DNA of 64,000 bases from Escherichia coli (GCF_048403405.1 NZ_CP183129.1), one strand, 5' to 3'; counted from the stretch's first letter, positions 1,894 to 27,348 are shown. Numbers and translations: made by a program. Notes: generated from the letters alone by a model not told the origin.

Positions 1894-2353
1894 CCGTCTA
1901 ACTCCGTGGTTAATGGGTGAGTGGTATTTTCTGTTGTGCAGAGCATGAGACGCTATTTGACCTGGCTGGTCAGTGGATGAAACAACAGATAAAGAAAAGG
2001 CGGACAATCCGCCCGCCTGTCATGATTTGTACTCACTTATTTCCCGACTGACAATTTACATAGCCAAAACGCTATCAAATCTGACAGTCTGCTTTGAGCG
2101 AGGAGCGGAAGTTAAGGGGCGGTTTAGTATCTAACATGATCTATATGAAATAGTGATTCTTGGCGTATTGCTAATACAACCCCGATTTGATGTAACTCTT
2201 GTCCACTTTCATCTAACTTCCTCTTGTTCAGGTTCATTTTTAACTGCTAATATGCAGTATATAAAGGAACATGGGTTTACCGTTGTAAGATGCTGCTGAA
2301 AGGTAAGCATAATTATATTGTTAGGTGTCTTTTTATTTTTAAAGGCTTTAAAC

Positions 2354-3460
2354 ATGTCTAAAACACGCGATGATTTCAGCTCAAAAACTGTAAGAGCTCT
2401 AGCACTACGGGCTGGTTATAGGTGCTCATTCCCCGGTTGTAATCAGCTTACAGTTGGCCCCAGTGATGAATCCTTAACATCTATCACAAATATTGGGGTA
2501 GCTGCGCACATTCATGCCGCAGCTCCTGGGCCATTAGCAAGACGATATGATCCTAATCAAACACCAGATGAAAGGAAAGATATAAATAATGGCATCTGGA
2601 TGTGTGTTAATCACAGCGTTGAAATTGATAGAGATGAAATTAGATATACAGCAGAAATTCTTAAAGAAATGAAGAAAGCCCACGAAGAAGAGATTAAAAA
2701 AGAGGTGAGCAATGGTTCTTCATCAACCAAACATAATGATTTCATTGCAATAGGTATAGACATTATCGTTTTCGGAGAGCTTACCGGAATCTCAACCAAT
2801 GAGTGGACTATAAAATTTGCAAACTTCTTTACTGGCGATTTATCTAAGTTAATATCTTTCAACGAAAGATTCCACTCCATCCCTACCGAAGAAAAATTTA
2901 TTCTAGTTAATCAACTTGGTGAGGGGCGTTTGTTATCAGCACCAATAAAATTAAATAAATTACCAGATAGCTATGAAGTAATCGTCCCTGTTGAAATAGA
3001 CACTCCGCGCATCAATTGCAATAGCCTCCCAATGGATTTAGATATTTTCACGACAGGCGATTTATTTGTAAATAGTTCTGGTGATATAGCTACGATATCG
3101 GGGTTTGAAGCTTTACCACAAAAAATATATACTTCCCTTTCCACCATTAGAGGTGAGATTTATTCCCATCCAACATTGGGTTCCAGAATAAGACAGTTCT
3201 TCCATGACTTTGAAGGAACAATGTGGCTAGACAAATTAGTTAAATTAGAAGTTATACGCTTATCTTGTATACCAATTTTTGATTCAATCACAAAAAACAA
3301 ATACACTCCATTACATTGTGTAAAAAATGTCAAAAATATTCGGGTGATACCAACTGAATATAAAGATAGCAAATTACCTATTGAGTTCACCCTTGATATT
3401 GAAGGTTTCGGCATCTGGTCCAAAGAAATAAGTGTTTTCTCACCTAAATACGATGAATAA
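2354..3460 (+). CDS. Cargo protein with N-terminal HNH-like nuclease motif (C-x4-C ... AAHIHAA ... NGIWMCVNHSVEIDRD) and ~250-aa C-terminal region of unknown function
   Basis: ATG at 2354 preceded by AAAGG; 368 aa; low-GC by eye; sits at the P2 Z/fun variable position between G and FI, on the strand opposite to the late genes. Motif assignment is by eye, not by HMM. Confidence 0.6.
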   Translation: MSKTRDDFSSKTVRALALRAGYRCSFPGCNQLTVGPSDESLTSITNIGVAAHIHAAAPGPLARRYDPNQTPDERKDINNGIWMCVNHSVEIDRDEIRYTAEILKEMKKAHEEEIKKEVSNGSSSTKHNDFIAIGIDIIVFGELTGISTNEWTIKFANFFTGDLSKLISFNERFHSIPTEEKFILVNQLGEGRLLSAPIKLNKLPDSYEVIVPVEIDTPRINCNSLPMDLDIFTTGDLFVNSSGDIATISGFEALPQKIYTSLSTIRGEIYSHPTLGSRIRQFFHDFEGTMWLDKLVKLEVIRLSCIPIFDSITKNKYTPLHCVKNVKNIRVIPTEYKDSKLPIEFTLDIEGFGIWSKEISVFSPKYDE

Positions 3461-3983
3461 AATTGAAGTTCTTGAACCGCTATATTTGGCTCCGGTATTT
3501 ACTCCGTGAGTGGTATCCTAGGGCCCTGTGCGGAGGATTTCATTGTAATGCTCATACGCTGTAGCCAGGTTCATGTTTCTTCAGCAAGGCCATTTGGGCT
3601 AGTGGCCTGCTCCCCATTGCTCCACACAAAAAATTATTCGTTACGTCCGCTCCTGGCACACAGTAGACATCGAGAGACAGCTTCGAGCGATAATCAGAAG
3701 TTCGCAATTGTCATCACCCAAAAGTTGTTTATAACTTGTAGCAAGGTGCATTGTTCAACGTTGAGTTGGTCAAGTTCAGTTAATGATCGGACGATATCTC
3801 ACTCTGCCCAATAGCACATCTGTTTTACGGGAAGTGAGTTTCAACATCACGAGCTTTGTTAGTAAACATCACTTATTTATTAAGAATATGTTTCATAGAA
3901 CAGGGCCGGAGAACTTAATTTCATATTCTAAAAAGTGATGCGCAGACATCACTTTAAACTTTTTAAAGCGCGAAAACCCTACG

Positions 3984-4985
3984 TCAGAATTTGACAGTAG
4001 GAACGGTTGGCCAGATTCTAGCAATAGACTTAAACATAGTCTCCACAATATATTCGAGAACCTCATCATCAGGCTCTTTCATTAATGCTTTTACTTTATT
4101 TATTCTATCCTGAAGTGAAGGGTGAGATTTTGAAAAACCCCAGTTGTTTTTACCTAACATAGTAACGCTGAATAATGCACAGTATATAGAAAGTCTTCTT
4201 TTCCTGCTCACCAACACACGGTCATACATAGACTCTTCACAGTAATTATCTATATGGTCAAGGATGAATTTATTTGCAAACTCATCACATGAGAACTCTT
4301 CATTATGAGCTTGTTCTTGTGTGAATTCATTCATATCATAACTGGTACCTTCCTGCTGATGAATGATATGTCGGACTTCATGCAAAAATGCCCAAGCAGC
4401 AGCAATAATTGCTAATTCAGCTGTTGCTCTTTTAACTGGTTCGATTTTACTGTCAGGCATGGTGCCAGGTTCAGGAATTCCTATTGGTAGTGGTTTTTCA
4501 TCCGGTACCTCATCTTTAGCCGTGTTTTCAAAAGCGCAGATTAACTGTTCAAAGTTTACGAAGTCTGCCGAACTGAAATCAGCAAGTTCTTCCTGTAGCT
4601 CCTCGAGTAAAACATGTAATTCTGACTCGGTTGAGACTAATGATATTTTCTTTGAGTCAAAAAGATCTAAAATAGAATCCCTTTTATCGATAATGTCTTC
4701 AATTTTTTTATTTTGCTCAGTGTTTATTGCTTCGTAGCCCGCCATTGCAGCAAATGTTCCTATCCAGAACGTGCGCAAAACACGATGATTGAAGCGGATA
4801 AATCGATACATCCCCGCATCAAAAATAAATTTACCGTCTGTATGATTATCGCTATGATTTTGGAAGGTCATGTTAAATTTAGACCAGAACTCATCCAGTT
4901 CATTCTGACGCTCTGGAATAGAGGCTAAAAACATTTTTCTTACGCTGTCCTGAACTGTTTTATCTTCATTATGCTCTTCAAACAT
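3984..4985 (-). CDS. Cargo protein with HExxH motif (AWAFLHEVRHIIH), possible zinc metallopeptidase-like protein; acidic N-terminal half
   Basis: ORF 3984..5045; preferred start is ATG at 4985 with GGTGAG upstream (333 aa); alternative TTG at 5045 (353 aa). Convergent with the HNH-like gene; low-GC by eye. Confidence 0.55.
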   Translation of the reverse strand: MFEEHNEDKTVQDSVRKMFLASIPERQNELDEFWSKFNMTFQNHSDNHTDGKFIFDAGMYRFIRFNHRVLRTFWIGTFAAMAGYEAINTEQNKKIEDIIDKRDSILDLFDSKKISLVSTESELHVLLEELQEELADFSSADFVNFEQLICAFENTAKDEVPDEKPLPIGIPEPGTMPDSKIEPVKRATAELAIIAAAWAFLHEVRHIIHQQEGTSYDMNEFTQEQAHNEEFSCDEFANKFILDHIDNYCEESMYDRVLVSRKRRLSIYCALFSVTMLGKNNWGFSKSHPSLQDRINKVKALMKEPDDEVLEYIVETMFKSIARIWPTVPTVKF

Positions 4986-5248
4986 TTGCTCACCTATATT
5001 GCTGTTAATTTTATCTAATGATGAACCGAGTGGGTTGTTTACCAAGCCTCATGTTACATGTTTTTTGCTTTCCGAATATTTAAGCGTTAGAAGCAAGTAG
5101 GAAAAACGTAGAGCAGTTAACCAAGGCTTTCTACAGGCAGATTAACATAACTTGGTCAGGAATGTCCGCTCTTGGCACATAGCGGACTGTCAGATTAGGC
5201 TTTACTCTGTGCTATAGATATGTAAGCTCACACCAGAGATCATACAAC

Positions 5249-5776
5249 TTATTGCGGCATTTCCGGCCATTCGGGATTTGCAGGATCCACACGACTGACC
5301 AGAACGCTGTAGCGTTCCCATGCTTCCAGTCGGCTGCGTTCCTCATCCGTCGCCATATTCAGCCTGACAGCGCGTTCCAGCGGCAAAATCACGGATTCAG
5401 CTTCGGAAAGTAAAGCTGCCTTTTGTGATTCTGCCTGTTGCTCCTGTTCATCTGCCGTATAAATCCGCTTAATCACGGCACCATCCTTAAACATCCATTT
5501 ACCTGAGTCATCAGCACGTCGGTTGGAGGTAATATCAGGAACCTCGACAACGCTGAAACCTTCAGGGTTAAGCGTTGAAGCATCTCTGGTGATGCCGACA
5601 ATTATATTATTCTCGTCGTAAACAATCTTTATCGTGTCTTCCTGAAAATTACTTACTTCCTCATACCAGTTTTTTCCCTCTTCGGACCATAACCAGATAA
5701 CATCAAAATTTTTTGTCAGTTGATATTGGGCAACAGTTTTTGGATTACCCGCAGTAATATTTTTTAAATGCTGCAT
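5249..5776 (-). CDS. G: Tail fibre assembly protein gpG
   Basis: 175 aa, [19 protein letters not shown]..., immediately downstream of H as in P2. Confidence 0.85.
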
Positions 5777-5779
5777 AAA

Positions 5780-7825
5780 TTACACCTGTGCGACGTTATA
5801 CCATGTGCCATTGATGTATTTTTGTATTGGCCTGAATACTGCGGGGTCATCACCATCGACTTCACCGACAATACCAAGCCCGGTAATTACGTGCCCTGCT
5901 TTCTCATACATCACCCCTTTCTGCATGGTCTGGACAACACGTGTGCCAAGTCTGATATCTCTCACATAGCGGGAATCAAAGTTACCGTAATCCGAGGGAT
6001 TAACACGCCCCGTAATATTTATGGTCTTATTACTTTGAATGCTTCCGGAAACAAAGCGCATAACATGGACGTTATTAGCATAAACATCCAGATTACCATC
6101 GCCATTTTGTTTAAATCCGGTGTCGTTATCACCAAGAACAATAGAGTTCCCACCCAACGCGTTATTCGTGCCAAGTGCCAGCCCGCCATCAATCCTGGCA
6201 CCATTACCAACAGACACAACTCCTGTTCTTAAGTTGATGCCGAATGGCCTTAATGGCCCAATATCTCCATTTTCACCCTCATTTTCTCGTGTAGGAATGA
6301 TATACAGGTTTTCTTCAGAACGGCGAAAAATAGCACCAAAAGATGAATTAAATATCCTCAGCGCATTGACTGTAGATATTTTTACTTCACTGCTGAAAAG
6401 GGCTTTAACAAGAACATACAGAGCATCCCATTTAAGATTCATCAGGTCTTTTGTTGTGGTGCTCTGGCGACTTCTCCATTTGAAATATTCATTGCCGTTA
6501 TCCCCCGTTTCAAACCACATGTATGAATCAGTGTCACCATCGGCATCATTTTTAAATCCAATCTTCGCCCAGTCAGTATTTCGAATCCAGGCAAGGATTG
6601 AGTCGTTTTCAAAAGTAAGTCCACCGGACAAGGTATCGCCATTTTTTTGCACGGCGTTCCCGGCTCGGTTTACCGTTTCCTGTAAACCGAGATATTCGAT
6701 AACGGCGGCAACGGTCGATTTAGCCAGAATATCCCGCCCGACTTTTGTCAGGGTCGCCAGGCTGGCAACATCATTCCCCGTAAAATACGGAAACCTGTCT
6801 GCCGCAGTAGCAAGCCCCGCCAGCGCCGTCAAAGTGGCATCTTTCGGTTGCTTACCCGCAAGCGCATTAGTCATGGTGGTAGCAAAATTCGGGTCATTGC
6901 CCAGCGCCGCCGCCAGCTCGTTCAGCGTATTCAGTGCGTCAGGCGACGAGTCTACAAGGGCGGCAATCGCGGCCATAACGAAAGCCGTGTTTGCGATCTG
7001 AGTATTATTCGTTCCCTGTCGCGCAGTTGGCGTCGTTGGCGTTCCGGTCAGTGCAGGGCTGTTTAATGGCGCTTTCTTGTTCGTTTCATCCATTACCGTC
7101 TTAACGGCTTTTGGTGTTGCGGCGAGCGTTTCAGACGTGCTGTTGGTCGCACTACTGAGCTGGACAAGGCCTTTTCGCGCTATGGTGGCGTCCTGTGCGG
7201 TATATTTCCCGTTAGCAAGGTCATACGCGGCCTTTACCGCTTTCGGCGTTGCGGCCAGTGTTTCAGACGTGCTGTTGGTCGCACTGCTTAACTGAGTAAA
7301 ACCTTTTGCGGTCAGCGAGGCGTCAGGGTGACGTCGTGACTGTTCATGTTCTGCAATTTTGTCATCAACGTAATCCTGCGTTGCCATCACCGTTGTGGTG
7401 TCAATGGTCAGCTCCACTGAGGCCACACTGCTGACGATGATGACCATGCGGCAGGTCTGCGAACGCCCTGAGCCTTCGGCAAGGGCTGGCTTATAACTTT
7501 CGGCCATGTTCGCCACGGCAATTAGCGTTCCCGCATCATCGTACAGGCCAAGTTCACGCATCCAGAAACCGCCCACCTCCGGCGGAATAACCAGCTCTGC
7601 GATAATATAATTACTGTTTCGTTTGTCCTGGCTGATTTTGTTCAGCGCATGTCGCCAGACTTCGTGGATAAGCCCGGTCTGTCCGGCATCCGGGACAGGC
7701 AATTTACCACCGCCATCCCCGACGGCCATCGTGGTAATGTTGACCTTCCGCCCTCCCGGTGCGGTTGCCGCTGCCAGCTTTGCTGCACCGGCAGTGGTGA
7801 TAACGGTTTTGAATTTTGTGCTCAT
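5780..7825 (-). CDS. H: Tail fibre protein gpH
   Basis: 681 aa; conserved N-terminus MSTKFKTVITTAGAAKLAAA; internal repeats LSSATNSTSETLAATPKAVK; variable C-terminal receptor-binding region. Confidence 0.9.
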   Translation of the reverse strand: MSTKFKTVITTAGAAKLAAATAPGGRKVNITTMAVGDGGGKLPVPDAGQTGLIHEVWRHALNKISQDKRNSNYIIAELVIPPEVGGFWMRELGLYDDAGTLIAVANMAESYKPALAEGSGRSQTCRMVIIVSSVASVELTIDTTTVMATQDYVDDKIAEHEQSRRHPDASLTAKGFTQLSSATNSTSETLAATPKAVKAAYDLANGKYTAQDATIARKGLVQLSSATNSTSETLAATPKAVKTVMDETNKKAPLNSPALTGTPTTPTARQGTNNTQIANTAFVMAAIAALVDSSPDALNTLNELAAALGNDPNFATTMTNALAGKQPKDATLTALAGLATAADRFPYFTGNDVASLATLTKVGRDILAKSTVAAVIEYLGLQETVNRAGNAVQKNGDTLSGGLTFENDSILAWIRNTDWAKIGFKNDADGDTDSYMWFETGDNGNEYFKWRSRQSTTTKDLMNLKWDALYVLVKALFSSEVKISTVNALRIFNSSFGAIFRRSEENLYIIPTRENEGENGDIGPLRPFGINLRTGVVSVGNGARIDGGLALGTNNALGGNSIVLGDNDTGFKQNGDGNLDVYANNVHVMRFVSGSIQSNKTINITGRVNPSDYGNFDSRYVRDIRLGTRVVQTMQKGVMYEKAGHVITGLGIVGEVDGDDPAVFRPIQKYINGTWYNVAQV

Positions 7826-7835
7826 TATTCCTCAC

Positions 7836-8366
7836 TTATCCGGGGTAAACCGTAATTACATCGCCGTCATAAGCCACACCACCGACGAACAGGTAGCCGG
7901 GAATGTCCCGGGTAATGTTCAGGCCAATAAGGTGGCGGCTTGCAGGTTTGGCATCAGCAATCAGCCGTTCCATTTCCTGATACATTGCCTCTGTGATACC
8001 GCTTTCCAGTACACCAATATCAAGCCGGAAGGTGCCGGGCGGGTCACTGGTTTCCCACCACTCCGTCACGTTGATGAGATAGCCCAGCGGCTCCACCACA
8101 CGCCGGATTGCACCTATAGTGCCTTTATGACAGTGGATGAAATAGGCATCGCGAATAACGGCGCGTTTGGTCGCTTCCGGCCACTTTTCATCCCATCTGT
8201 CGACCGAAAACGCCCACGCCAGCCACGGCAGCAGATTTGCCGGGCAGGTGTCCGGGTTCCACAGCTCACGAATACTGACCGGCGTTTTTTCAATTTCCGC
8301 ACAGGCTTTTGCAGCGGCGACTTCAAGCGGTGATGAGCCGGTCGGCAGCAGGCGCGAATCACTCAT
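7836..8366 (-). CDS. I: Baseplate assembly protein gpI
   Basis: 176 aa, position and size as P2 I. Confidence 0.85.
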   Translation of the reverse strand: MSDSRLLPTGSSPLEVAAAKACAEIEKTPVSIRELWNPDTCPANLLPWLAWAFSVDRWDEKWPEATKRAVIRDAYFIHCHKGTIGAIRRVVEPLGYLINVTEWWETSDPPGTFRLDIGVLESGITEAMYQEMERLIADAKPASRHLIGLNITRDIPGYLFVGGVAYDGDVITVYPG

Positions 8367-9267
8367 CCGAGCCTCCGGTCACGACGCGGTATTCGGTACA
8401 GAAAGACGCCTGCGTACTGTTGAGCACGATGTCGGCCAGCGGTGCAGCCAGTTCGACACGCTGCACGCCTTCCACATGCAAAGCGGCATAAATGGCAGAC
8501 AGTCGGATGTCGCGCCCCAGCCGGTGCTGTGCCGTGATATACGCTTCCAGTTTTTTCACGGCGGCAGCGCGAATGGGTTCGCTTTTGGGGCCAGGGTAAA
8601 GGTAAAGCATGGCATTTATCTGGTATTCAACGATGGCGGCAGACTGCACGGTCACACGGTCGGCCACCGGTCTGACGTCCTCGCCATTCAGGGCGTTGCG
8701 CACCACAGCCAGCAGGTCTTCAGATGCCACACCGTTATTTTCACGTGACAGCACAGAGATGGTGACACAGGCCGGAGACGGACTGGTGACAGAGATATCC
8801 GCGACACGCCCGTCGGCACTGCGACCATGATACTGATAGGCTCCCACCGACCCGGCGACGCTTAAGCCTTCAAACGCCTGCTGAATACGCAGACGATAAT
8901 CGGTGTCAGACTCCATCACTGCCGGTGTCGGCGGGATAGTCGAATCATCTGCCGGGGTGATAGTCAGGCGCGTGGTGTTGTAATTGGCACCAATCACATC
9001 AAGGTCATTACCGGCTGCACAGGCCAGCATCACCGCCCGTGCAGCCTCATTCACACGCTGACGCCAGATAAGCTCGCGATACGCATTTTCCTCCAGCAGT
9101 TTGACGAGAGGCTCGGATTCCAGCGTCAGGGTACGGGCGACCGCCTCCTGCTGGTCTTCCGGGTAAAGGGAAATCAGTGTCGCCTTGCGTTCGGCAAGAA
9201 TGGTTTCAAAGTCCAGCTCCTCGACCACATCCGGTGCGGGTAGCTGGTTCAGGTCGATAATCGGCAT
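8359..9267 (-). CDS. J: Baseplate assembly protein gpJ
   Basis: 302 aa, overlaps I start, as in P2. Confidence 0.85.
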   Translation of the reverse strand: MPIIDLNQLPAPDVVEELDFETILAERKATLISLYPEDQQEAVARTLTLESEPLVKLLEENAYRELIWRQRVNEAARAVMLACAAGNDLDVIGANYNTTRLTITPADDSTIPPTPAVMESDTDYRLRIQQAFEGLSVAGSVGAYQYHGRSADGRVADISVTSPSPACVTISVLSRENNGVASEDLLAVVRNALNGEDVRPVADRVTVQSAAIVEYQINAMLYLYPGPKSEPIRAAAVKKLEAYITAQHRLGRDIRLSAIYAALHVEGVQRVELAAPLADIVLNSTQASFCTEYRVVTGGSDE

Positions 9268-17571: not shown

Positions 17572-19344
17572 ATGACCATCACCACAGACACCACTCTTTT
17601 ACACGACCCGCGTCGTCAGGCGGCGCTGCTGTACTGGCAGGGGTTTTCCGTGCCGCAGATTGCCGCCATGTTGCAGATGAAACGCCCGACGGTGCAGAGC
17701 TGGAAACAGCGCGACGGCTGGGACAGCGTTGCCCCCATCAGCCGTGTCGAAATGAGTCTGGAAGCGCGGCTGACCCAGCTCATCATCAAACCGCAGAAAA
17801 CCGGCGGTGACTTCAAGGAAATTGACCTGCTGGGACGCCAGATTGAACGACTGGCACGGGTCAACCGCTACAGCCAGACCGGCAACGAGGCAGACCTTAA
17901 TCCGAACGTCGCTAACCGCAACAAAGGCGGGCGGCGCAAACCGAAAAAGAATTTTTTCAGTGACGAGGCCATCGAAAAGCTGGAGCAGATTTTCTTTGAG
18001 CAGTCTTTCGAATATCAGTTGCACTGGTATCGCGCCGGGCTTGAGCACCGCATCCGCGATATCCTGAAATCCCGCCAGATTGGCGCGACGTTTTATTTTT
18101 CCCGCGAGGCGCTGCTGCGCGCCCTGAAAACCGGTCATAACCAGATTTTTCTGTCGGCCAGTAAAACGCAGGCGTATGTGTTCCGCGAATACATCATCGC
18201 CTTTGCCCGTCTGGTTGACGTTGACCTGACCGGTGACCCGATTGTCCTGGGCAATAACGGCGCAAAACTGATTTTTCTCGGCACCAACTCCAACACCGCG
18301 CAGAGCCATAACGGCGACCTGTACGTCGACGAGATTTTCTGGATCCCGAATTTTCAGGTACTGCGTAAGGTGGCATCAGGTATGGCCTCACAGAGTCACC
18401 TGCGCTCGACCTATTTCTCCACCCCGTCCACGCTGGCACACGACGCCTACCCGTTCTGGTCGGGTGAACTGTTCAACCGGGGACGCGCCAGCGCCGCCGA
18501 ACGCGTGGAAATCGACGTCAGTCATAACGCCCTTGCCGGTGGGCTTCTCTGTGCGGACGGCCAGTGGCGACAGATTGTCACCATTGAGGACGCCCTGAAA
18601 GGCGGCTGCACGCTGTTCGACATTGAGCAGCTCAAACGCGAAAACAGCGCCGACGATTTTAAAAACCTGTTCATGTGTGAATTTGTTGACGACAAGGCGT
18701 CGGTGTTCCCGTTTGAGGAGCTGCAACGCTGCATGGTCGACACGCTGGAAGAATGGGAAGACTATGCGCCGTTTGCCGCAAATCCGTTCGGCTCCCGACC
18801 GGTATGGATTGGTTACGACCCGTCACACCGTGGCGACAGCGCAGGATGCGTGGTACTGGCACCGCCGGTGGTGGCCGGTGGCAAATTCAGGATCCTTGAG
18901 CGTCACCAGTGGAAAGGCATGGACTTTGCCACTCAGGCTGAATCCATCCGCAAACTCACCGAAAAATACAACGTCGAATACATCGGTATTGATGCCACCG
19001 GCCTCGGTGTCGGCGTGTTCCAGCTCGTGCGCTCGTTCTATCCCGCCGCGCGCGACATCCGCTACACGCCGGAAATGAAAACCGCAATGGTGCTCAAGGC
19101 AAAAGACGTCATCCGCCGTGGCTGTCTGGAATATGACGTCAGCGCCACCGACATCACCAGCTCGTTTATGGCTATCCGCAAGACCATGACCAGCAGCGGA
19201 CGCAGCGCCACCTATGAGGCCAGCCGCAGCGAGGAAGCCAGCCACGCCGACCTCGCCTGGGCGACCATGCACGCCCTGTTAAATGAGCCACTCACCGCCG
19301 GTATCAGCACCCCGCTGACATCCACCATTCTGGAGTTTTACTGA
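17572..19344 (+). CDS. P: Terminase large (ATPase) subunit gpP
   Basis: ATG at 17572 (MTITTDTTLL...), ~590 aa. Confidence 0.9.
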   Translation: MTITTDTTLLHDPRRQAALLYWQGFSVPQIAAMLQMKRPTVQSWKQRDGWDSVAPISRVEMSLEARLTQLIIKPQKTGGDFKEIDLLGRQIERLARVNRYSQTGNEADLNPNVANRNKGGRRKPKKNFFSDEAIEKLEQIFFEQSFEYQLHWYRAGLEHRIRDILKSRQIGATFYFSREALLRALKTGHNQIFLSASKTQAYVFREYIIAFARLVDVDLTGDPIVLGNNGAKLIFLGTNSNTAQSHNGDLYVDEIFWIPNFQVLRKVASGMASQSHLRSTYFSTPSTLAHDAYPFWSGELFNRGRASAAERVEIDVSHNALAGGLLCADGQWRQIVTIEDALKGGCTLFDIEQLKRENSADDFKNLFMCEFVDDKASVFPFEELQRCMVDTLEEWEDYAPFAANPFGSRPVWIGYDPSHRGDSAGCVVLAPPVVAGGKFRILERHQWKGMDFATQAESIRKLTEKYNVEYIGIDATGLGVGVFQLVRSFYPAARDIRYTPEMKTAMVLKAKDVIRRGCLEYDVSATDITSSFMAIRKTMTSSGRSATYEASRSEEASHADLAWATMHALLNEPLTAGISTPLTSTILEFY

Positions 19345-20363
19345 TGAGCAAGAAAAAAGGGAAAACACCGCAACCTGCGGCAAAAAAAATGACCGCCAGC
19401 GCCCCGAAAATGGAGGCATTCACCTTTGGCGAGCCGGTGCCGGTACTCGACCGCCGTGACATTCTGGATTACGTCGAGTGCATCAGTAACGGCAGATGGT
19501 ATGAGCCGCCGGTCAGCTTTACCGGTCTGGCGAAAAGCCTGCGTGCTGCCGTGCATCACAGCTCGCCGATTTACGTCAAACGCAATATTCTGGCCTCGAC
19601 ATTTATCCCGCATCCGTGGCTTTCCCAGCAGGATTTCAGCCGCTTTGTGCTGGATTTTCTGGTGTTCGGTAATGCGTTTCTGGAAAAGCGTTACAGCACC
19701 ACCGGTAAGGTCATCAGACTGGAAACCTCACCGGCAAAATATACCCGCCGTGGCGTGGAGGAGGATGTTTACTGGTGGGTGCCGTCCTTCAACGAGCCGA
19801 CAGCCTTCGCGCCCGGCTCCGTGTTTCACCTGCTGGAGCCGGATATCAATCAGGAGCTGTACGGCCTGCCGGAATATCTCAGCGCCCTTAACTCTGCCTG
19901 GCTGAATGAGTCGGCCACGCTGTTCCGCCGCAAGTATTACGAAAACGGCGCTCATGCCGGATACATCATGTATGTCACCGATGCCGTGCAGGATCGCAAC
20001 GATATCGAAATGCTTCGCGAAAACATGGTGAAGTCGAAAGGCCGCAACAACTTTAAAAACCTGTTTCTCTATGCCCCACAGGGGAAAGCCGACGGCATTA
20101 AAATTATCCCCCTCAGTGAAGTGGCGACGAAGGACGATTTTTTTAATATCAAAAAAGTCAGCGCCGCAGATCTCCTGGACGCACACCGCATCCCCTTTCA
20201 GTTGATGGGCGGTAAGCCGGAGAATGTCGGGTCACTAGGAGATATTGAAAAAGTGGCAAAGGTCTTTGTCCGCAATGAACTCACTCCATTACAGGAGAGA
20301 ATAAAGTCAATAAATGAATGGTTAGATATGGAAGTCATAAAATCCCTTGATTATAACTTATAA
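19344..20363 (+). CDS. Q: Portal protein gpQ
   Basis: 339 aa, ATGA overlap with P stop; last ~100 bp look AT-rich. Confidence 0.9.
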   Translation: MSKKKGKTPQPAAKKMTASAPKMEAFTFGEPVPVLDRRDILDYVECISNGRWYEPPVSFTGLAKSLRAAVHHSSPIYVKRNILASTFIPHPWLSQQDFSRFVLDFLVFGNAFLEKRYSTTGKVIRLETSPAKYTRRGVEEDVYWWVPSFNEPTAFAPGSVFHLLEPDINQELYGLPEYLSALNSAWLNESATLFRRKYYENGAHAGYIMYVTDAVQDRNDIEMLRENMVKSKGRNNFKNLFLYAPQGKADGIKIIPLSEVATKDDFFNIKKVSAADLLDAHRIPFQLMGGKPENVGSLGDIEKVAKVFVRNELTPLQERIKSINEWLDMEVIKSLDYNL

Positions 20364-20375
20364 GTAAATATATAA

Positions 20376-20402
20376 AGTTGGCGGAATGCAATCCCGCCAA
20401 CT
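20376..20402. terminator. Hairpin AGTTGGCGG-AATGCAATC-CCGCCAACT between convergent Q and cargo operon; likely bidirectional terminator
   Basis: 9-bp perfect stem read from the sequence in the 42-bp gap between the stop codons. Confidence 0.6.
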
Positions 20403-20405
20403 TAA

Positions 20406-21113
20406 CTATATATACTTCCTTTTTACTCTACTTAATTCTATCACTGATGAGGAGTGACAAAATGACAAATTAATAGTATCGATATAATCCAAAATTTGAC
20501 TCTCAACCTCAATAAAAATATTTTTGGGCCCATTACTAATCGATATACCGATTTCATCCAAAACAGCCATCATTTTTCTCTGATGAGTTTTATATTTATA
20601 GTCTTTATTTTCCTCTGTAATATGTGCATTGGCTTCCTCAATAACACATTTGATTCTAGATATTATTTCTAGATAATCTCTCGAAACAGATATATCACCG
20701 CCTTGCGCTTCAGGGAACATAACCCTATACCATCTAAAAAAATTAACTTTCTCTGGATAGATGCTACTTCTTTTAGTTAACTCAGCACTTGCAAATTCTC
20801 TAAACATCGTCAGATGACTAGTGTAATTACTATTATTATTATTTTTAACTCCAGCGTTATATGTCATCAAAGCAATCATAACACCAAAAACGGTAACAAA
20901 AGTTGTTATAAGCCATCCAAACGCCTGAAAATACATTACTATACCAGATGTTTTTTCCGCAAAAAATTTTAAGCACTGGCTATCGAAGCATATATCACGC
21001 TCATATAGCTTTTCATTCTGAATAGTTTCAAAAAGAGAAATTAGCGAAAAAATCAAAAAAAGAGCTGACGACACACCGACAATATATTTGAGAAGTCTAA
21101 TATTTGCATTCAT
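20406..21113 (-). CDS. Cargo protein with two N-terminal transmembrane helices, translationally coupled to the upstream reverse transcriptase; candidate effector
   Basis: ATG at 21113 overlaps RT stop (ATGA); 235 aa; hydrophobic segments IVGVSSALFLIFSLISLF and GIVMYFQAFGWLITTFVTVFGVMIALMTY; AT-rich by eye. Confidence 0.65.
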   Translation of the reverse strand: MNANIRLLKYIVGVSSALFLIFSLISLFETIQNEKLYERDICFDSQCLKFFAEKTSGIVMYFQAFGWLITTFVTVFGVMIALMTYNAGVKNNNNSNYTSHLTMFREFASAELTKRSSIYPEKVNFFRWYRVMFPEAQGGDISVSRDYLEIISRIKCVIEEANAHITEENKDYKYKTHQRKMMAVLDEIGISISNGPKNIFIEVESQILDYIDTINLSFCHSSSVIELSRVKRKYI

Positions 21114-22336
21114 AATGGTTTTAAAGATGCCAATCTAGATTTAAAACACTCCAGTTTTTCTTTAAATGATTCAGAGCGAGTAAGAATAATCATCTTATAT
21201 CTCGTCAAATCATATTTTCTTTTATACCAATGTTTATTTTGATTACCTTTCGAATACGACAACTCTAAACTTTTTATAGCTGCATCAATCACAGCAACAT
21301 CTCTTTTAGATGGCATCGGTTTTATTGCCTGCAACTGTTTCTTGAATGATTCATATTTTTCATGCCCAACACGGCCAAGCTTATTCACTCTCCCCATACA
21401 TCTATTGAATTCTTTTCTGTATGCAACACTTGTTTTTGTGTTATTTTTTGCCGCCAGTAATTTCAAATTATGTATAGATGCCCTGATTCTTTTGACTTCA
21501 TCGGATGGTAGTCGAGGTGAGTCATAGTCAACTCTTAAACCATGTACTTTTATAGGTTCAGATGAACAGTGAAATATTTTTGTTTTGTGCTTATTTATCG
21601 GCAAGTCATGCTCAGAAAGCATCCTCTCTATATGGCTTTGCATTTGAGAAAAATCATAATTACTTATTTTAGATGACACGGTAATATCATCTACCAAACG
21701 CGTATAAACAAGTCCTTTCCTCTGCGCACGTCTTACCACATCCCCTTCAACAGCGAATAAACACAAAGTTGCTATATAGCTTGATGTTAAGGCCCCCTGT
21801 ACGACAAAATCATCCTTAGTACATATATCCACCAAGTATTCAAGAGCCTCATCCTTAATATGCAATATCTCCTCAAACACGCTCCTAACCAGATCTCTAT
21901 GGATATTATCGAAAAAATTACTTATATCCACCTTGAGAACTGTTTTTGCTCCACAATGAGCCTTTGCACATGAAACATAGTCACGTTTGACATTAGAATT
22001 TAAAACATCATTTTTACTGGGAACTGAACCAAACAAAAATGAAGGAAAAACAACCAATTCCTTAAAAATACGTTTATTAATTCTACTCTGTAATAATCTC
22101 ATTTTAGGATGTAGGGAGTAGACAATCCGTTTGCTTCCGTCAATTTTGGGAATTTCTTTTAGAGTATATTTCTCATCTAATGATAATTCTGCAATAGCTT
22201 TAAGCTCTTCAACAGAAATCGATAAAGCCTTTGACAACTTTTCAAGTGTTGTGATAGGAGCATTGGATTTGCTGTATGGTTTAAATTTATCCATAAACAT
22301 ACCATTCAAATTCAAAGTTACGTACGGTCTTCCCAT
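21110..22336 (-). CDS. Reverse transcriptase (retron-like or Abi-type), defence-associated candidate
   Basis: RT motifs in the translation: IPKIDGSKRIVY (fingers), VLKVDISNFFDNI (motif A), QGALTSSYIA (motif B-like), YTRLVDDITVSS (YxDD; DNA ~21671-21706), and KVHGLRVDYD resembling the retron VTG region. Start uncertain: ATG candidates at 22336, 22300, 22294; the supplied ORF extends to a TTG at 22384. Confidence 0.8.
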   Translation of the reverse strand: MGRPYVTLNLNGMFMDKFKPYSKSNAPITTLEKLSKALSISVEELKAIAELSLDEKYTLKEIPKIDGSKRIVYSLHPKMRLLQSRINKRIFKELVVFPSFLFGSVPSKNDVLNSNVKRDYVSCAKAHCGAKTVLKVDISNFFDNIHRDLVRSVFEEILHIKDEALEYLVDICTKDDFVVQGALTSSYIATLCLFAVEGDVVRRAQRKGLVYTRLVDDITVSSKISNYDFSQMQSHIERMLSEHDLPINKHKTKIFHCSSEPIKVHGLRVDYDSPRLPSDEVKRIRASIHNLKLLAAKNNTKTSVAYRKEFNRCMGRVNKLGRVGHEKYESFKKQLQAIKPMPSKRDVAVIDAAIKSLELSYSKGNQNKHWYKRKYDLTRYKMIILTRSESFKEKLECFKSRLASLKPL

Positions 22337-22625
22337 ACTCAAGGGTGGAACAGCAGAGATGCTTACATCAACAATTGTCAGCAACAGCCTCTGCTATCTT
22401 TCGACCGTACGTAATGTCGTCGGCTACGGCACCATCGTAGTTGACGACGGTGGGGCCTCGCTGATAGGTCCATAGTGGACGCTTTTTTGTAAAAGCAAAA
22501 ACTGACAATTTAATGTTGTTGACTGCCGCATACCAAGCGAATCGCTGGTGCGCTAAGAATAATGCAACAAAAAAATAAGAATTTCAACCGGGTAACTGCA
22601 AGCCAGCGACATCGTTTAGCGCGCA

Positions 22626-22644
22626 GTGCTTTCCCCGCCTCGCC
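22626..22644 (-). other. cos: cos cohesive-end site (19 nt, GGCGAGGCGGGGAAAGCAC on the minus strand)
   Basis: Exact match to the P2 cohesive-end sequence as remembered; embedded in a locally GC-rich noncoding stretch between the RT gene and the 612-aa gene. Confidence 0.75.
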
Positions 22645-22805
22645 CGCCCGCTTCGTGGGGCGGTTTTAATGCAGGTGCAATACCGCTTTTGAGCCACGCC
22701 CGTCCTGGCGGACGCACGGCCGGAACATGCAACTCCGGCACATGCAAAACCATGCACATATTGCACGCAGAAAGATAAATGCCAAAATACCTAAATCAAC
22801 TTCCA

Positions 22806-24644
22806 TTAATCAGCCAGATAAGGTTCAACTTTATCTTCCCATACACTAAATAAAGGCAAACAAGTTAAATAAAAGATAAAGACACAGGCAAAAACTGAAG
22901 TTGGTTGATAACAATGATTTACAGTATACCTGCCATGAGCCATCGTGTGTCTAATTGCAGCACCACCTTTCATATTGAACAATAAATCCATAGTCAATAC
23001 ATGATCACTATCAAAAACACCTTCCATTTCACTCCTATAATTTGCAAGCATTTGAGATAGGCTAGTAGCCTCCTCAAAAAGCGACACATCTATTTTCGTT
23101 GTTTCTTTTCTTCTTAATTCTAAAATCCATCTAATTGAATTCTCCAATTGCGGCAATAACAAATAACAGGCAGACACATAATCTCCCTGCCAAAGCTTAT
23201 AAAACCCCAAAGAAAATATTTCTGCATACCCAGGTGGAACAAATGCACTTTGTTGTGAGATTGGGTCAAATGTATTTTCATTTAATGAATACCTAGCCAA
23301 CACACTTTGCCTAACGACTTCAAACTCACCACAAACATAGACCTGATGCTCAATGTTACTAGTTCTTAAATAATTTGCACAAGCATCATTTAAACTTATA
23401 TCCCCCGCAGGATCCAAAGGTGAACGACTTGCTACAACGCGCCCTCTATCATCATAAACAACCGTTTCACTCATATTAAGAAAAAAATGTTTTTTAGCAT
23501 CGGAACGAGCTCTTTCCATAATTTCACTGGCACTTACAATCTTAAATCTAGCAATTAAAGTTTTAATTACCCTTGAGAAATCCAATTGATTATAAACATG
23601 CTCTTTCTGAGCGATAACATCACTAAGATCCATTGGTATTGCAAAGAAGTGCATTTCATCATTGATTTGATCTCGAATAGAATTCAATTCCTCTCTAATC
23701 TTTTTAATTTCTTCATTCATTCCACCAATTGCTCTAAATTCGCCAAGAGCAACTCTTAACCAATGAGCCTTCAATATTGAAGATGAAGACTGTTCAAATT
23801 GAGCCAATGTTATTTCTGACGCTTTAATTCTGCACCGTCTTCCTTGCTCTTCCATATCGTTTTTAACATATAATTCAGACGCAAAATAAAACAATTTTTT
23901 CACTGCATCAAAATAAGACGCTCCACAATGCTCATCAGCTATCTTTTCTGCATTCTCAGCCAATTGCAAGGGACACAATAAATTATTCTTATAAAGAATT
24001 TCAGAAACTCTTAATACACCGGTGAATATACCAGAGTCTATTAATACATGATATAACCTTAATGTCGAATCAACTATCCCCCCTTGTAGTTGTTTTTTCC
24101 TGCCAATAAGCATGCGCGATATTGCGATACCTCTATCCAAGCAGTCAACAACATCAAAAATATGGATATCACCTGACTCTTGTTTTTCTATTAAAGTATC
24201 GCAAGCATCATTAACCATTAGAGAATATGACTCTATTGCTTTATTGGCAGAGTCTATATCCTTACGGTTATTTATCCATAAAACATCACACACCCTAGAT
24301 ATAATATAAGGATTATCGGAGTTTTCTTTAATACAAGTTAATATTGTTGAAAAACTCTCCTTATAATCTGAAGGCCTATAGCCCCTCTCAGGATAGAGAA
24401 TGATTTTTGGCTCAAAACCGATAATATCACCAGACCTAGAAAATTTAAAATTAAACAACGCACGTAATAAATAGCAAAGCCGCCAAGAACTTACATCGTT
24501 TTTTAGCTTGTAAGATGACAACAACTGAACAAAATAAGACTCCATATCAAAATGAGAATAACTTCTTGGCGATGATAATATACTGGCGTATTCACTTTTT
24601 TTAAAATCATCAACTGAAATAGAAAAAACATCAAACTCGCTCAT
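22806..24644 (-). CDS. Cargo protein of unknown function (612 aa) with C-terminal HEPN-like R-x4-H motif (AIRHTMAHGRY); candidate abortive-infection RNase
   Basis: ATG at 24644 with GGTGAGGA upstream; no P-loop seen; AT-rich by eye; occupies the P2 tin/old position between A and cos. The HEPN call rests on one short motif. Confidence 0.6.
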   Translation of the reverse strand: MSEFDVFSISVDDFKKSEYASILSSPRSYSHFDMESYFVQLLSSYKLKNDVSSWRLCYLLRALFNFKFSRSGDIIGFEPKIILYPERGYRPSDYKESFSTILTCIKENSDNPYIISRVCDVLWINNRKDIDSANKAIESYSLMVNDACDTLIEKQESGDIHIFDVVDCLDRGIAISRMLIGRKKQLQGGIVDSTLRLYHVLIDSGIFTGVLRVSEILYKNNLLCPLQLAENAEKIADEHCGASYFDAVKKLFYFASELYVKNDMEEQGRRCRIKASEITLAQFEQSSSSILKAHWLRVALGEFRAIGGMNEEIKKIREELNSIRDQINDEMHFFAIPMDLSDVIAQKEHVYNQLDFSRVIKTLIARFKIVSASEIMERARSDAKKHFFLNMSETVVYDDRGRVVASRSPLDPAGDISLNDACANYLRTSNIEHQVYVCGEFEVVRQSVLARYSLNENTFDPISQQSAFVPPGYAEIFSLGFYKLWQGDYVSACYLLLPQLENSIRWILELRRKETTKIDVSLFEEATSLSQMLANYRSEMEGVFDSDHVLTMDLLFNMKGGAAIRHTMAHGRYTVNHCYQPTSVFACVFIFYLTCLPLFSVWEDKVEPYLAD

Positions 24645-24797
24645 TCCTCACCTTTAAAGCACTTAACAAACAATCATGGTAAACAATACCAAACTGCAAG
24701 CAACGATTAAATACAGAAAACTCTTTCTGTCGAGATTTTTCAATAACACTAAATATATACAGTACGAAATTATCTAATATTGCGTGAATTTTTGCCA

Positions 24798-27083
24798 TTA
24801 TGTCCACTCCATTACTGTTGAGAATCCCGGCCACTCATCAATGACCGGATACGTGAATTTTTTCCCGCCATAATTTATGGTCGCTCCCCGAGCCAGCGCC
24901 TCAAGCTCCCATCGCTGTGGCCTGATACCGTTCTGAGCAAGGTCAACGCGGATACGGGTAATTTGCATTCGTTCCGACCGGGTCAGTCTGGCCGATGGCG
25001 CTATTTCATGCGGTTTTAACGGGCTTCCGTTTCTTTGCTGACGGTTTGGTCTTCTCAGACCGTGTTTTAATGCACCTCTGAGCGCCCTCACGACCTCCTG
25101 GTCATTCCATTCGATAACACCGTCATCTACCAGATTAAGCACTGCTACGGCGTGTTCAGAAGGCGTGGGAGCCGGTGACGAAGTATCACCACCGGTGAGC
25201 TTTCCACAGTTATTGACAGGACTCCGAGGCGCGGCGATGCCGCTTTTTAAAGTCAACGGCTCAACGACCGGAACTTTCGGCACAATGCGCCAGTCCGTCG
25301 TTCTGGTGATATGAATATGACGCGTGCCGAGATGCGGCGCGTAAATGCCGACCACTCTCTCGACTTCTTCCTCGTACTCGTTAACGTCATCCGACGGGCT
25401 ACGGGCGACCCTGACAGTCTGACAATCGCGCGGGACATTTGCCCCGCCCTGCGCGCTGATATACAACGCAAAATCACCACTGTCTGCGGCGGCGCGTGCA
25501 GCCTCGACGCGTTCGTCAAACTCATCAGCAATGCTGACGCCGCGAGGCAATTTGCGTAGTTCACGGTAAGCCCCCATTGTCGGCAGGCCAACCGTTTTAA
25601 ATTGCGGGATACGCCACGTTGACGCCCATGCGGTAACAGCCGCTGCAGTGTCTTTCAGCGGCCTGCCGGTATCGTTATCGAGCTGACCATCCAGTGCATA
25701 GCCGTCGATATTTTTTGAGATGTATTTCGCGATATATCCCGCAGCACCGCCCCGGTTAAGGTGTTTCGCCTGAAAACGGTTTCGCGCGGCTCCTCTTTCG
25801 TCGCCATCCTCTTTGAGCGCATAGCGACGCATGATTTCGATAATCTGGTTACGCTGGCGTGGATTACAAAAAAGCATCATATGCCAGTGCGGCGTTCCGT
25901 CGTGGTGTGGCTCGACGACTCGCAAACCGTAGACCTGTAAATCATTATCCTTGAATGCCGTGCGCATCAGGCTCCAGATACGGCAGAGATAACGCTGCGC
26001 ATCCTTCGGATTAAATGCCTCATCATTCCAGCCGTGATTAAGCTGCACGGTTTTACTTTCTCCTTTTCCGACCTGACGTGTCGGGTGATACTTTGACGGC
26101 GCGGTCAGCGTGATAAACATCCCCACATCACCCTCTGCGGCGGCGTAACGCTCAATACCGGCGATGGTGTTCATCAGCTCCATCCGGCGAATTTCAGGAT
26201 TAGAAATACTGCCCATCACCTTACTGATAAGGTCGATGCGCTCGCCGGTTTCCCTGTTTTCGAGGTCACACGATTTAAGAAATTCCAGATTTGCCTGGCG
26301 GCGTGCACGCACATCACGAATGGCGTGTTTACTGGCATAAGGAGAACGATCTTTATTGACCTCCCCGACAGCAATCAGTAACGCCTCATGCCAGCGCATA
26401 CGCTGGCCTTTAAGCTGATGAGTCCACCACTCATCGTTAAACAGGCGGGCAATGGCAGAATATGCCTGCCTCGTGGTCATCTGTCCTTTACGGTATTTTT
26501 TCCAGTAGAGCGGGGAAATATTGAAAGCACGTGCAGCGCCAGCAACATGACTATACAGGTGAGCCTGCGCCTCATCCGTAAACAGCGATTCTTTTTCGCC
26601 ATGCGCATCCACCCAGGCATCGCTGAGTTCCTCATACATCATGAAAAGCTGCGATGAGATACGGGCGGCAAACTTTTTCAGCTCCTTGTCATTCATTCCA
26701 GGCAGGCGCGCATAGTGGTCACGCTCTGCCAGAAACAGCAACGACGCGTCGGTGTTCATTTCATGGCGCTGATTCACGCGCTCAATGCGCGGCCATAAAC
26801 GACGCTGAAAAGTGGATGTGAGGAAATAAAACCCGTGTACCGGGCTTTTATTGCGCCGGATGTAGTCATAGCGTGAAGTAAACAGCGAGCGCAAAAAGTA
26901 AGGCAGGCGGTTAATCGTGGATAAAACCCCTTGCACCTGACGCATCTCGTCACGTGTAAGGGGTCTTTCGCGCCCGACGGCCTCGCGTGGCGCGTTCCAT
27001 GCATAAGCACCGGTAAACGTCTTACCGGTGCCTGCGGCAAATGCTGACGGAGGGACAAAACGCCCGGAGGCTTTAACGGCCAT
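24798..27083 (-). CDS. A: Replication initiation protein gpA (rolling-circle nickase)
   Basis: ATG at 27083 (MAVKASGRFVPPSAFAAGTGK...), 761 aa; the supplied ORF extends to an upstream TTG. Confidence 0.9.
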   Translation of the reverse strand: MAVKASGRFVPPSAFAAGTGKTFTGAYAWNAPREAVGRERPLTRDEMRQVQGVLSTINRLPYFLRSLFTSRYDYIRRNKSPVHGFYFLTSTFQRRLWPRIERVNQRHEMNTDASLLFLAERDHYARLPGMNDKELKKFAARISSQLFMMYEELSDAWVDAHGEKESLFTDEAQAHLYSHVAGAARAFNISPLYWKKYRKGQMTTRQAYSAIARLFNDEWWTHQLKGQRMRWHEALLIAVGEVNKDRSPYASKHAIRDVRARRQANLEFLKSCDLENRETGERIDLISKVMGSISNPEIRRMELMNTIAGIERYAAAEGDVGMFITLTAPSKYHPTRQVGKGESKTVQLNHGWNDEAFNPKDAQRYLCRIWSLMRTAFKDNDLQVYGLRVVEPHHDGTPHWHMMLFCNPRQRNQIIEIMRRYALKEDGDERGAARNRFQAKHLNRGGAAGYIAKYISKNIDGYALDGQLDNDTGRPLKDTAAAVTAWASTWRIPQFKTVGLPTMGAYRELRKLPRGVSIADEFDERVEAARAAADSGDFALYISAQGGANVPRDCQTVRVARSPSDDVNEYEEEVERVVGIYAPHLGTRHIHITRTTDWRIVPKVPVVEPLTLKSGIAAPRSPVNNCGKLTGGDTSSPAPTPSEHAVAVLNLVDDGVIEWNDQEVVRALRGALKHGLRRPNRQQRNGSPLKPHEIAPSARLTRSERMQITRIRVDLAQNGIRPQRWELEALARGATINYGGKKFTYPVIDEWPGFSTVMEWT

Positions 27084-27348
27084 ATGAGCCAAAAGCCTCT
27101 GAACAACGCTTGCTGAGTTGCTCAACCTGCGCGTTTAAATCAGCAAAAGACTTTGCGCTTCCGGTCAGAATATCGTGATGCATCAGGCCGGAAACGAGCT
27201 GGCTTAATTTCGGGTAATAACCAACCACCGCCAGCCATTCCTGACCGGCGTTTTTACCGCTTTCCGCTCTCTTTTTCTCGTGGAGAATAAACTGAAAGCT
27301 GTCACTGGTAACGACATAACGTTCGCCAATTTCAATACGAATGCTCAT
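27073..27348 (-). CDS. Small early protein at the P2 orf83 position
   Basis: 91 aa, position only. Confidence 0.5.
   Translation of the reverse strand: MSIRIEIGERYVVTSDSFQFILHEKKRAESGKNAGQEWLAVVGYYPKLSQLVSGLMHHDILTGSAKSFADLNAQVEQLSKRCSEAFGSYGR

Follow-up and report, generated by a model that had tools for sequence, protein, structure and literature searches.

Two candidate anti-phage modules occupy separate slots on either side of cos in the A-Q hotspot of a P2-like prophage of Escherichia coli

In a 64,000-nt stretch of Escherichia coli DNA (GCF_048403405.1, NZ_CP183129.1; hereafter the window, with positions counted from its first letter), a P2-like prophage carries a block of cargo genes between its replication gene A and its portal gene Q, at 20364-24797, with the cohesive-end site cos in the middle. 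Our analysis indicated that this cargo most probably represents two anti-phage modules, each complete in itself and acquired horizontally, which fill the two slots flanking cos in the P2-like A-Q hotspot, a reading to which we assign a probability of about 0.85. The slot on the Q side (~20291-22607) carries a complete Retron-Eco6 (Ec48), and the slot on the A side (~22675-24815) carries ORF612, a 612-aa protein whose C-terminal domain was modelled as a HEPN fold. What makes the modules neighbours is solely that both slots border on cos, and among complete E. coli genomes each half was mostly found without the other.

According to the proposed scheme, a promoter just inside the Q-side cargo would drive the msr-msd RNA, the reverse transcriptase (RT) and the two-transmembrane (2TM) effector. 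The RT would make a 48-nt multicopy single-stranded DNA (msDNA), and phage inhibition of RecBCD, for example by lambda Gam or T7 gp5.9, would trigger the membrane effector, so that the infection is aborted. On the A side, ORF612 would act as a stand-alone sensor and RNase, activated by dimerisation or oligomerisation. The slots would be exchanged independently via recombination very near cos, a mechanism that we infer from the homology breakpoints described below. In the virion the two modules would lie at opposite ends of the DNA, to be rejoined by circularisation.

Layout of the A-Q region

The boundaries of the region and of the two slots were placed as follows.

19344-20363, plus strand: gene Q (portal), backbone boundary, convergent to the retron operon (TIGR01540, PGAP)
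22626-22644, unstranded: cos, the 19-nt P2 cohesive-end sequence (exact match, phage record ends)
~22608/22618 to 22674/22679, unstranded: core common to P2-like prophages around cos (homology breakpoints 22608, 22618 and 22674)
24798-27083 (PGAP) or 24798-27125 (as an open reading frame, ORF), minus strand: gene A (replication endonuclease), backbone boundary

E. coli chromosomes with a P2-like prophage matched the window, and strain GN02461 was 100% identical over the region studied. The 19-nt P2 cos sequence, GGCGAGGCGGGGAAAGCAC, occurred once in the window, on the minus strand and with 0 mismatches, while an exact match was obtained in none of 100 shuffles. Window base 22626 is the exact terminus of two linear phage records, Yersinia phage L-413C and Salmonella phage MET_P1_103_31, and the cos core was detected in 2,127 of 5,426 complete E. 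coli genomes. The gene order on the minus strand is A, a small ORF, the 612-aa gene, cos, a non-coding RNA (ncRNA), the RT and the 2TM gene. This bears out, in coordinates and strands, the co-oriented train from A through the gene after the RT that an earlier sequence-only reading of the window had described. The co-orientation holds for the present prophage but not for the hotspot in general, where the commonest neighbour of the retron across cos, the RT gene AbiP2, is on the opposite strand.

On the Q side, where the portal gene scored 253 bits against TIGR01540 (cut-off 166), homology to other P2-like prophages stops at ~20290-20296. On the A side, the last ~6 codons of A are already within the variable block, and similarity to prophages of different cargo begins again at 24816. 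The G+C content is 0.52-0.59 in the backbone, 0.32-0.37 in both cargo blocks and 0.62 in the cos island. The region thus presents the marks of a cargo hotspot, namely a position between A and Q, cos inside, variable content and foreign composition.

The two halves assort independently across cos

The co-occurrence of the two halves was counted in the same 5,426 complete genomes, in which the counts for AbiP2 are lower bounds. The retron half was found in 56 genomes, the ORF612 half in 20 and both in 5; accordingly, 51 of the 56 retron carriers lacked ORF612 and 15 of the 20 ORF612 carriers lacked the retron. Across cos from the retron, AbiP2 was present in at least 42 of the 56 genomes and also in phage pro147, neither ORF612 nor AbiP2 was present in 9 retron genomes among the matches listed, and nothing is annotated at this position in strain G3. 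AbiP2 is a 514-aa RT, located on the opposite strand at ~6988-8532 in loci L002, L005-L007, L009, L010 and L017 (PADLOC E = 5e-160), and it occurred without the retron in at least 18 genomes. Reciprocally, ORF612 was accompanied by two small hypothetical Q-side genes in ECC-1470, EH41 and EC-JS426 and by an empty Q side in 16F5M1D1, VE-V10-F and RM11911. For each half, three or more different arrangements across cos are on record.

The homology breakpoints gave the same picture. Compared with a prophage carrying the retron and AbiP2, homology broke at 22674 and 24816; compared with an ORF612 prophage it broke at 20290 and 22608, and compared with a divergent ORF612 variant at 22618. The breaks near cos lie ~8-30 bp from it, so that only ~60 bp remain as a common core and each slot is exchanged separately. 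Moreover, the type IV retron family was also found in P4-like satellites and at non-phage chromosomal sites, with no A gene upstream. These results support the view that the two halves are independent systems, one of the two possibilities that the sequence-only reading had raised, and Rousset 2022 likewise lists them separately, as systems #22 and #55. That reading had also asked whether homologous prophages carry both halves together, and only the 5 genomes above do, against 56 with the retron and 20 with ORF612.

Two side observations concern the partners across cos. Through the pairing of the retron with AbiP2, many P2-like prophages carry two unrelated RT-based defences flanking cos, and three copies of AbiP2 were plasmid-borne. 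The satellite retrons, with an RT identity of 54-59%, lie downstream of Ogr/Delta in P4-like satellites of Providencia (L019), Morganella (L020), Yersinia (L022) and Citrobacter (L023). Their RTs begin at 3001 or 5001 of the loci, an integrase gene follows directly in 3 of the 4, and the site appears to be the cos-proximal P4 hotspot. The cos-adjacent slots of helper and satellite thus both hold the same retron family, as distant relatives only.

The Q-side slot carries Retron-Eco6

The Q-side half is a complete Retron-Eco6 (Ec48) of type IV, comprising an ncRNA, an RT and a 2TM effector. Its two protein genes are the following.

21110-22294, minus strand: type IV retron RT, 394 aa from the PGAP start (PADLOC RT_IV)
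20406-21113, minus strand: retron Ec48-family 2TM effector, 235 aa (NF038235, PADLOC 2TM_IV)

The RT matched PADLOC RT_IV over profile positions 2-385 of 386 (585.7 bits, E = 1e-176). Its reading frame is open to 22384 (424 aa), with alternative upstream starts at 22300 and 22336, and the length of 424 aa is corrected here to ~394 aa, from the PGAP start at 22294. The catalytic LVDD motif occupies aa 200-203 (VDD aa 201-203, in the numbering of the 394-aa protein). When counted from the MGRPY start at 22336, its aspartates become D216 and D217, in agreement with the Ec48 RT mutants of Millman 2020. The 2TM gene overlaps the RT gene by 4 nt and encodes hydrophobic segments at aa 5-32 and aa 58-86; its product matched NCBIfam NF038235 retron_Ec48_2TM with 226.7 bits (cut-off 65) and PADLOC 2TM_IV with E = 4e-85. 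Residue for residue, the effector equals protein 2 as listed by Rousset 2022 (Table S5B) for system #22, 'Type IV retron', the consensus of 147 loci.

Ec48 has been reported to guard RecBCD, with lambda Gam or T7 gp5.9 leading to 2TM-dependent cell death, and to be active from a plasmid clone (Millman 2020); Gam was confirmed again as a trigger in a 2025 study. By analogy with this essentially identical published system, a branched 2'-5' msDNA and a defence triggered by RecBCD inhibitors would be expected here.

That one or both modules are decaying passengers without current function was judged highly improbable. Signs of decay do occur in relatives, since the 2TM effector is cut to 176 aa in ATCC 43896 (L010 4543-5073), and strain ET791 (L005 2345-4500) holds a prophage remnant in which the portal and tail genes are pseudogenised, with retron and AbiP2 intact. 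In the window, in contrast, every ORF is intact, the 2TM protein equals the 147-locus consensus, the ncRNA matches the experimentally active Eco6, and ORF612 equals the representative sequence of a 139-member cluster and retains all its invariant residues.

The retron ncRNA has a conserved structured 3' extension

The sequence-only reading had overlooked the ncRNA gene between the RT and cos, whose elements were placed as follows.

22388-22573, minus strand: Retron-Eco6 ncRNA (msr-msd), match to the published Eco6 ncRNA
22502-22516, minus strand: a1 repeat, ending in an invariant AG, with G22502 as the presumed branching G
22481-22496 and 22468-22480, minus strand: two msr hairpins
22407-22454, minus strand: msd template of the 48-nt msDNA, with a 13-bp hairpin at 22416-22448
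22365-22381, minus strand: a2 repeat, inside the P3 loop
22318-22414, minus strand: conserved structured 3' extension of the ncRNA, into the RT leader (covariation, 7 loci)

Published Eco6 ncRNA and RT-DNA sequences were taken from a retron census supplement. The minus strand from 22573 to 22388 matched the published ncRNA at 182 of 185 positions; the three differences are single-base indels that are inconsistent within the supplement and resemble text-extraction errors. The 5' end of the published RT-DNA maps to plus-strand 22407. An Rfam scan of 19500-25500 (E <= 1) gave no match, including no type IV msr model.

The RNA structure was then assessed by covariation in an alignment of 7 type IV retron loci (including L018-L023). 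The a1/a2 helix (22516-22502 with 22381-22365) covaries, with 8 pairs showing double changes and the AG invariant. Two further helices were found 3' of the msd: P4 (22403-22414 with 22318-22329), in which 98.8% are paired and both sides of 7 pairs have changed, and P3 (22389-22395 with 22352-22358), in which 95.9% are paired and 5 pairs have changed in this way. Scored as a whole, the structure reached a covariation value of 0.361, compared with 0.187 for shuffled and ~0.1 for slid controls. Over all helices, 82.5% of cells were paired against ~40% in slid controls, and 32 double-change pairs were counted against 16 in shuffles. P3 and P4 enclose a2, their pairing crosses that of a1/a2, and ~18 nt separate their end from the start of the RT. 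The published msDNA 5' end, at 22407, falls within one of these two helices and 25 nt from a2, which suggests that the topology is a pseudoknot, or else a pair of alternative folds or a switch in conformation close to where the RT begins.

Other assignments were considered and rejected. The 12-nt perfect inverted repeat formed by 22403-22414 and 22318-22329 was not retained as a1/a2, nor was a permuted arrangement of the retron in which the branching G would lie downstream, at 22325; this G varies among the loci, and the AG at 22502-22503 does not. An extension of a1/a2 by 22523-22529 with 22350-22356 showed no covariation and competes with the covarying P3.

The A-side slot carries a helical-repeat protein with a C-terminal HEPN domain

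The features of the A-side slot are the following.

22806-24644, minus strand: ORF612, 612 aa, with DUF7380 at aa 8-184, a TPR/SNAP-like helical middle and a C-terminal HEPN domain at aa ~452-612
22935-22952, minus strand: Rx4H motif of ORF612, R565-x4-H570
24631-24798 (ORF 24631-24834), minus strand: small ORF, 55 aa from ATG, unannotated by PGAP

ORF612 was recognised under three existing labels. Its DNA is 99.9% identical to GenBank AM157366, 'Bacteriophage P2-EC46 proviral ORF612', the earliest deposit of the gene, in the same slot beside A; a literature search on P2-EC46 and ORF612 returned no useful paper, and the link to P2-EC46 is that GenBank record. The gene corresponds to system #55 ('DUF4209, 1 TM', 76 loci) of Rousset 2022 Table S5B. 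As a full-length single-gene match, it also belongs to PADLOC PDC-S39 (HMM PDLC05011; 229.5 bits, E = 2e-68, aa 8-599 against profile positions 7-583 of 595). PDC entries in PADLOC are unvalidated candidate systems, and the literature search found no functional paper on PDC-S39.

To these labels the family comparison added a predicted domain structure. Pfam DUF7380 matched aa 8-184 of ORF612, and of the 84 relatives aligned, 74 matched Pfam DUF4209. When 1.84 billion representative proteins were searched with the profile, 5,870 clusters were returned, mostly of full length (~600 aa). Across the 84 relatives (16-77% identity) there is no variation at E501, R565, H570 and G571, and conservation of A569 is at least 90%. 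The AlphaFold model of ORF612 was a confident one (pLDDT 94); whole-protein fold searches returned generic TPR/SNAP-like repeats only, and the HEPN fold signal was seen only once the C-terminal domain was modelled alone. Among the sequences of solved structures, the ORF612 profile gave 0 hits. Based on the model, the C-terminal domain is a HEPN fold that bears the invariant Rx4H motif. DUF4209 had been placed in the HEPN superfamily, predicted to be catalytically active and noted in operons related to restriction-modification (Anantharaman 2013). From the DUF4209/HEPN assignment of the relatives, the invariant Rx4H and the helical-repeat fold, we infer that ORF612 is a helical-repeat sensor fused to a HEPN RNase, and likely a single-gene abortive-infection protein. 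The RNase activity would be metal-independent, with R565 and H570 as the predicted catalytic residues, which offers a testable prediction for a widespread defence candidate.

Genes of the same family were found next to SLATT and Abi_alpha genes. In other P2-like prophages with different downstream or Q-side cargo, for example PDC-S31, DUF7380 genes that are 52% (L015 8001-9842) and 35% identical (L026 7001-8854) likewise follow Phage_GPA directly and share its orientation, which points to a persistent preference of ORF612-like genes for the A-proximal slot. A second, divergent DUF4209 protein, starting MNDIFVLTREELE, was recognised as system #13 of Rousset 2022 Table S5B (193 loci) in the same P2 hotspot; together with the 76 loci of ORF612, these candidates make up ~1.5% of the 18,150 P2 hotspot loci.

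The small ORF between A and ORF612 begins with an ATG at 24798 that overlaps the A stop codon (TAATG), a start more plausible than 24834, and it overlaps the ORF612 start by 14 nt. No family match was obtained for it in PADLOC or NCBIfam. In a 91.5%-identical variant it is shortened in frame by 42 nt, has lost its stop codon and differs by mostly non-synonymous changes; the 52%-identity locus does not contain it, and in the 35%-identity locus no ORF was called in the gap between A and the DUF7380 gene. Promoter-like hexamers for ORF612 are located within it. As a conserved gene it was rejected, having no family match and being degraded or absent in relatives, and it is probably a leader region instead.

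The constant position beside A raises the alternative that ORF612 serves the lytic programme of the phage together with the early operon, for example in the takeover of host RNA or in competition with P4-like satellites, rather than host defence. This was considered unlikely. It would explain why ORF612-like genes of 100%, 52% and 35% identity are always first after A and co-oriented, why the cargo block starts inside the 3' end of A and why the start arrangement resembles translational coupling, and the defence function of ORF612 is itself a prediction. The family is, however, widespread beyond P2-like phages, with its 5,870 clusters and its SLATT and Abi_alpha neighbours, and PADLOC models it as a defence candidate. 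The slot it occupies is that of tin/old in P2 and of AbiP2 in other prophages, the spacing from A to the gene varies from 60 to 295 nt, and promoter-like sites are present in its leader.

Transcription across cos and the weight of the evidence

Two signals of transcription are relevant to the question whether the halves are coupled.

20375-20403, unstranded: strong hairpin, likely a bidirectional terminator closing the minus-strand transcript(s) and Q
22559-22587, minus strand: promoter-like site for the retron, TTGAAA, 17-nt spacer, CATTAT (9/12 consensus matches)

The hairpin, which follows the 2TM gene, has a 13-bp stem and then a U-rich tail on the minus strand, folds with -19.8 kcal/mol on the minus strand (z = -5.4) and -16.2 kcal/mol on the plus strand (z = -5.7), and stands alone in the region as a strong hairpin. 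The one after ORF612 does not surpass shuffled sequence (z = 0.39), and that at cos has no U-tract on the minus strand. The promoter-like site of the retron belongs to the Q-side cargo and is 39 bp away from the cos nick, and two more such sites lie in the ORF612 leader. Both sets would be promoters by their sequence; the retron site gains support because the retron occurs behind unrelated or opposite-strand neighbours, and these comparisons show that the retron is independent of upstream content.

Several observations weigh against the two-module reading. No convincing intrinsic terminator was found between A and 20375-20403, and hence none between ORF612 and the retron, so that read-through from the A side is compatible with the sequence. 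The consensus promoter scan returned 24 sites against 17.8 expected, and the matches are weak ones in AT-rich DNA. The 5 co-occurrences exceed the 0.53 expected (naive Fisher p = 1e-4). ORF612 is missing from the tested systems of Rousset 2022 (Table S2), lacks on its own a significant match to Pfam PF13910 (DUF4209), and stands, like all PDC-S39 members, as a defence candidate by prediction. The position of the msDNA 5' end is one for which canonical retron priming does not account. The Fisher enrichment was not accepted as evidence of linkage, because the five loci carrying both halves show 100% identity over the whole 4.4-kb query and so probably descend from a single recombinant lineage, not from five independent events.

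With these points in view, it was examined whether A, ORF612, cos and the retron could form one transcription unit, in which the cargos are coupled when the genome is circular or integrated and uncoupled by cos cleavage, and in which transcripts reading through from the A side would provide or increase the retron RNA. All genes are co-oriented, the sole strong minus-strand terminator comes only after the 2TM gene, the small ORF links A and ORF612 through overlapping stop and start codons, and the excess of co-occurrence points the same way. The absence of an internal terminator agrees with a single operon across cos, but co-inheritance fails: the halves are unlinked in 51 of 56 and 15 of 20 carriers, at least 42 retron loci have an opposite-strand gene across cos, and the co-occurring loci point to a single lineage. 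The retron family, moreover, resides in P4-like satellites and at chromosomal sites, and the retron is active from a plasmid clone. The early operon with A is among the lytic genes repressed by the P2-type C repressor, so that read-through from A would be an event of the lytic cycle, not of the lysogen. The shut-off of lytic genes in lysogens by this repressor is described in PMC3448106. One transcription unit is thus very unlikely. Related suggestions carry a low probability as well: early transcripts from A might pass ORF612 and cos into the retron, a link that cos cleavage would sever; circularisation after injection, or induction, might transiently raise the dosage of ORF612 and of the retron RNA, RT and 2TM effector; and the helices crossing a1/a2 could sense upstream transcription or msDNA status and thereby gate RT-2TM translation.

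We therefore retain two independent modules. The sequence-only reading had envisaged possible co-transcription from A in the prophage and, as one option, a functional link in the lysogen only, and neither finds support in view of the C repressor, the retron's own promoter-like site and the retrons that have no A upstream. As for separate promoters and terminators, each half does have a promoter-like site, while a strong terminator between the halves is lacking.

Other observations in P2-like prophages

A gene with a PAPS-reductase domain lies immediately upstream of A in some P2-like prophages (G3, L008 10051-11058; 16F5M1D1, L013 8297-9304), and this site is a further variable cargo slot inside the early operon. 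Many complete E. coli chromosome records begin (base 1) at the start of the P2 prophage gene A, for example NZ_CM169489 (EC12) and NZ_CP072322 (EC-JS426), with matches at record positions 2287-4294 and 4600-6796 in such rotated chromosomes. The rotation looks like an artefact of a start-fixing tool, gpA having been taken as the replication gene, and it leaves the prophage split across the record origin.

Comparison with known systems

The arrangement described here is already known, every component is catalogued, and the function of ORF612 is a prediction. What our analysis adds is the resolution of two slots with cos-adjacent breakpoints, the HEPN assignment of ORF612 and the placement of the ncRNA, and the locus is useful chiefly as a clean worked example of hotspot organisation. 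For annotation, the RT-2TM pair is to be labelled Retron-Eco6 including its ncRNA, and the cargo is not to be taken for a single operon.

The cos-proximal gpA-gpQ hotspot, the tin/old locus of P2, was defined by Rousset 2022, citing Odegrip 2006, and the fast swapping of its cargo was confirmed in a preprint (de Sousa 2026). The present locus resembles it in its variable low-GC cargo, in cos lying inside, in the often more than one system and in the fast swapping. Whereas the literature treats gpA-gpQ as a single hotspot, here it consists of two independently swappable slots that pivot on a ~60-bp cos core, which fits the published speculation that cohesive ends seed recombination. AbiP2, the P2-EC30-type RT of the DRT class, also takes the A-side slot and is most often what lies across cos from Ec48; it is unrelated to ORF612, lies on the opposite strand and is not in the present window.

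From Retron-Eco6 (Ec48; Millman 2020, Mestre 2020) the Q-side module shows no substantive difference: the RT and 2TM families, the ncRNA-RT-2TM order with overlapping genes, the near-identical ncRNA and the numbering of the catalytic aspartates are common to both. Its placement in the P2 Q-side slot, 39 bp from cos, is already contained in Rousset 2022 as system #22. Found here in addition are the helices 3' of the msd that cross a1/a2, a description of which was not found in the retron literature surveyed. Type IV ncRNA helices that are incompatible or pseudoknotted with a1/a2, together with an msDNA start 25 nt from a2, could matter for retron mechanism and engineering.

On the A side, P2-EC46 ORF612, system #55 and PDC-S39 are the same gene, labelled earlier as hypothetical, as 'DUF4209, 1 TM' or as a defence candidate; beyond these labels, the present analysis assigns a C-terminal HEPN domain with an invariant Rx4H and a TPR/SNAP-like remainder. 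ORF612 has in common with the HEPN toxins and RNases (RnlA/LsoA, HEPN-MNT, Csm6) and with the eukaryotic DUF4209 protein C6orf70/ERMARD the HEPN helical fold and an Rx4-6H motif, and with the toxin and RNase families also the location on mobile elements and near defence genes. Unlike those families, it has no antitoxin or partner gene and no CARF or MNT domain, and its predicted RNase activity is joined to a large helical-repeat N-terminal part.

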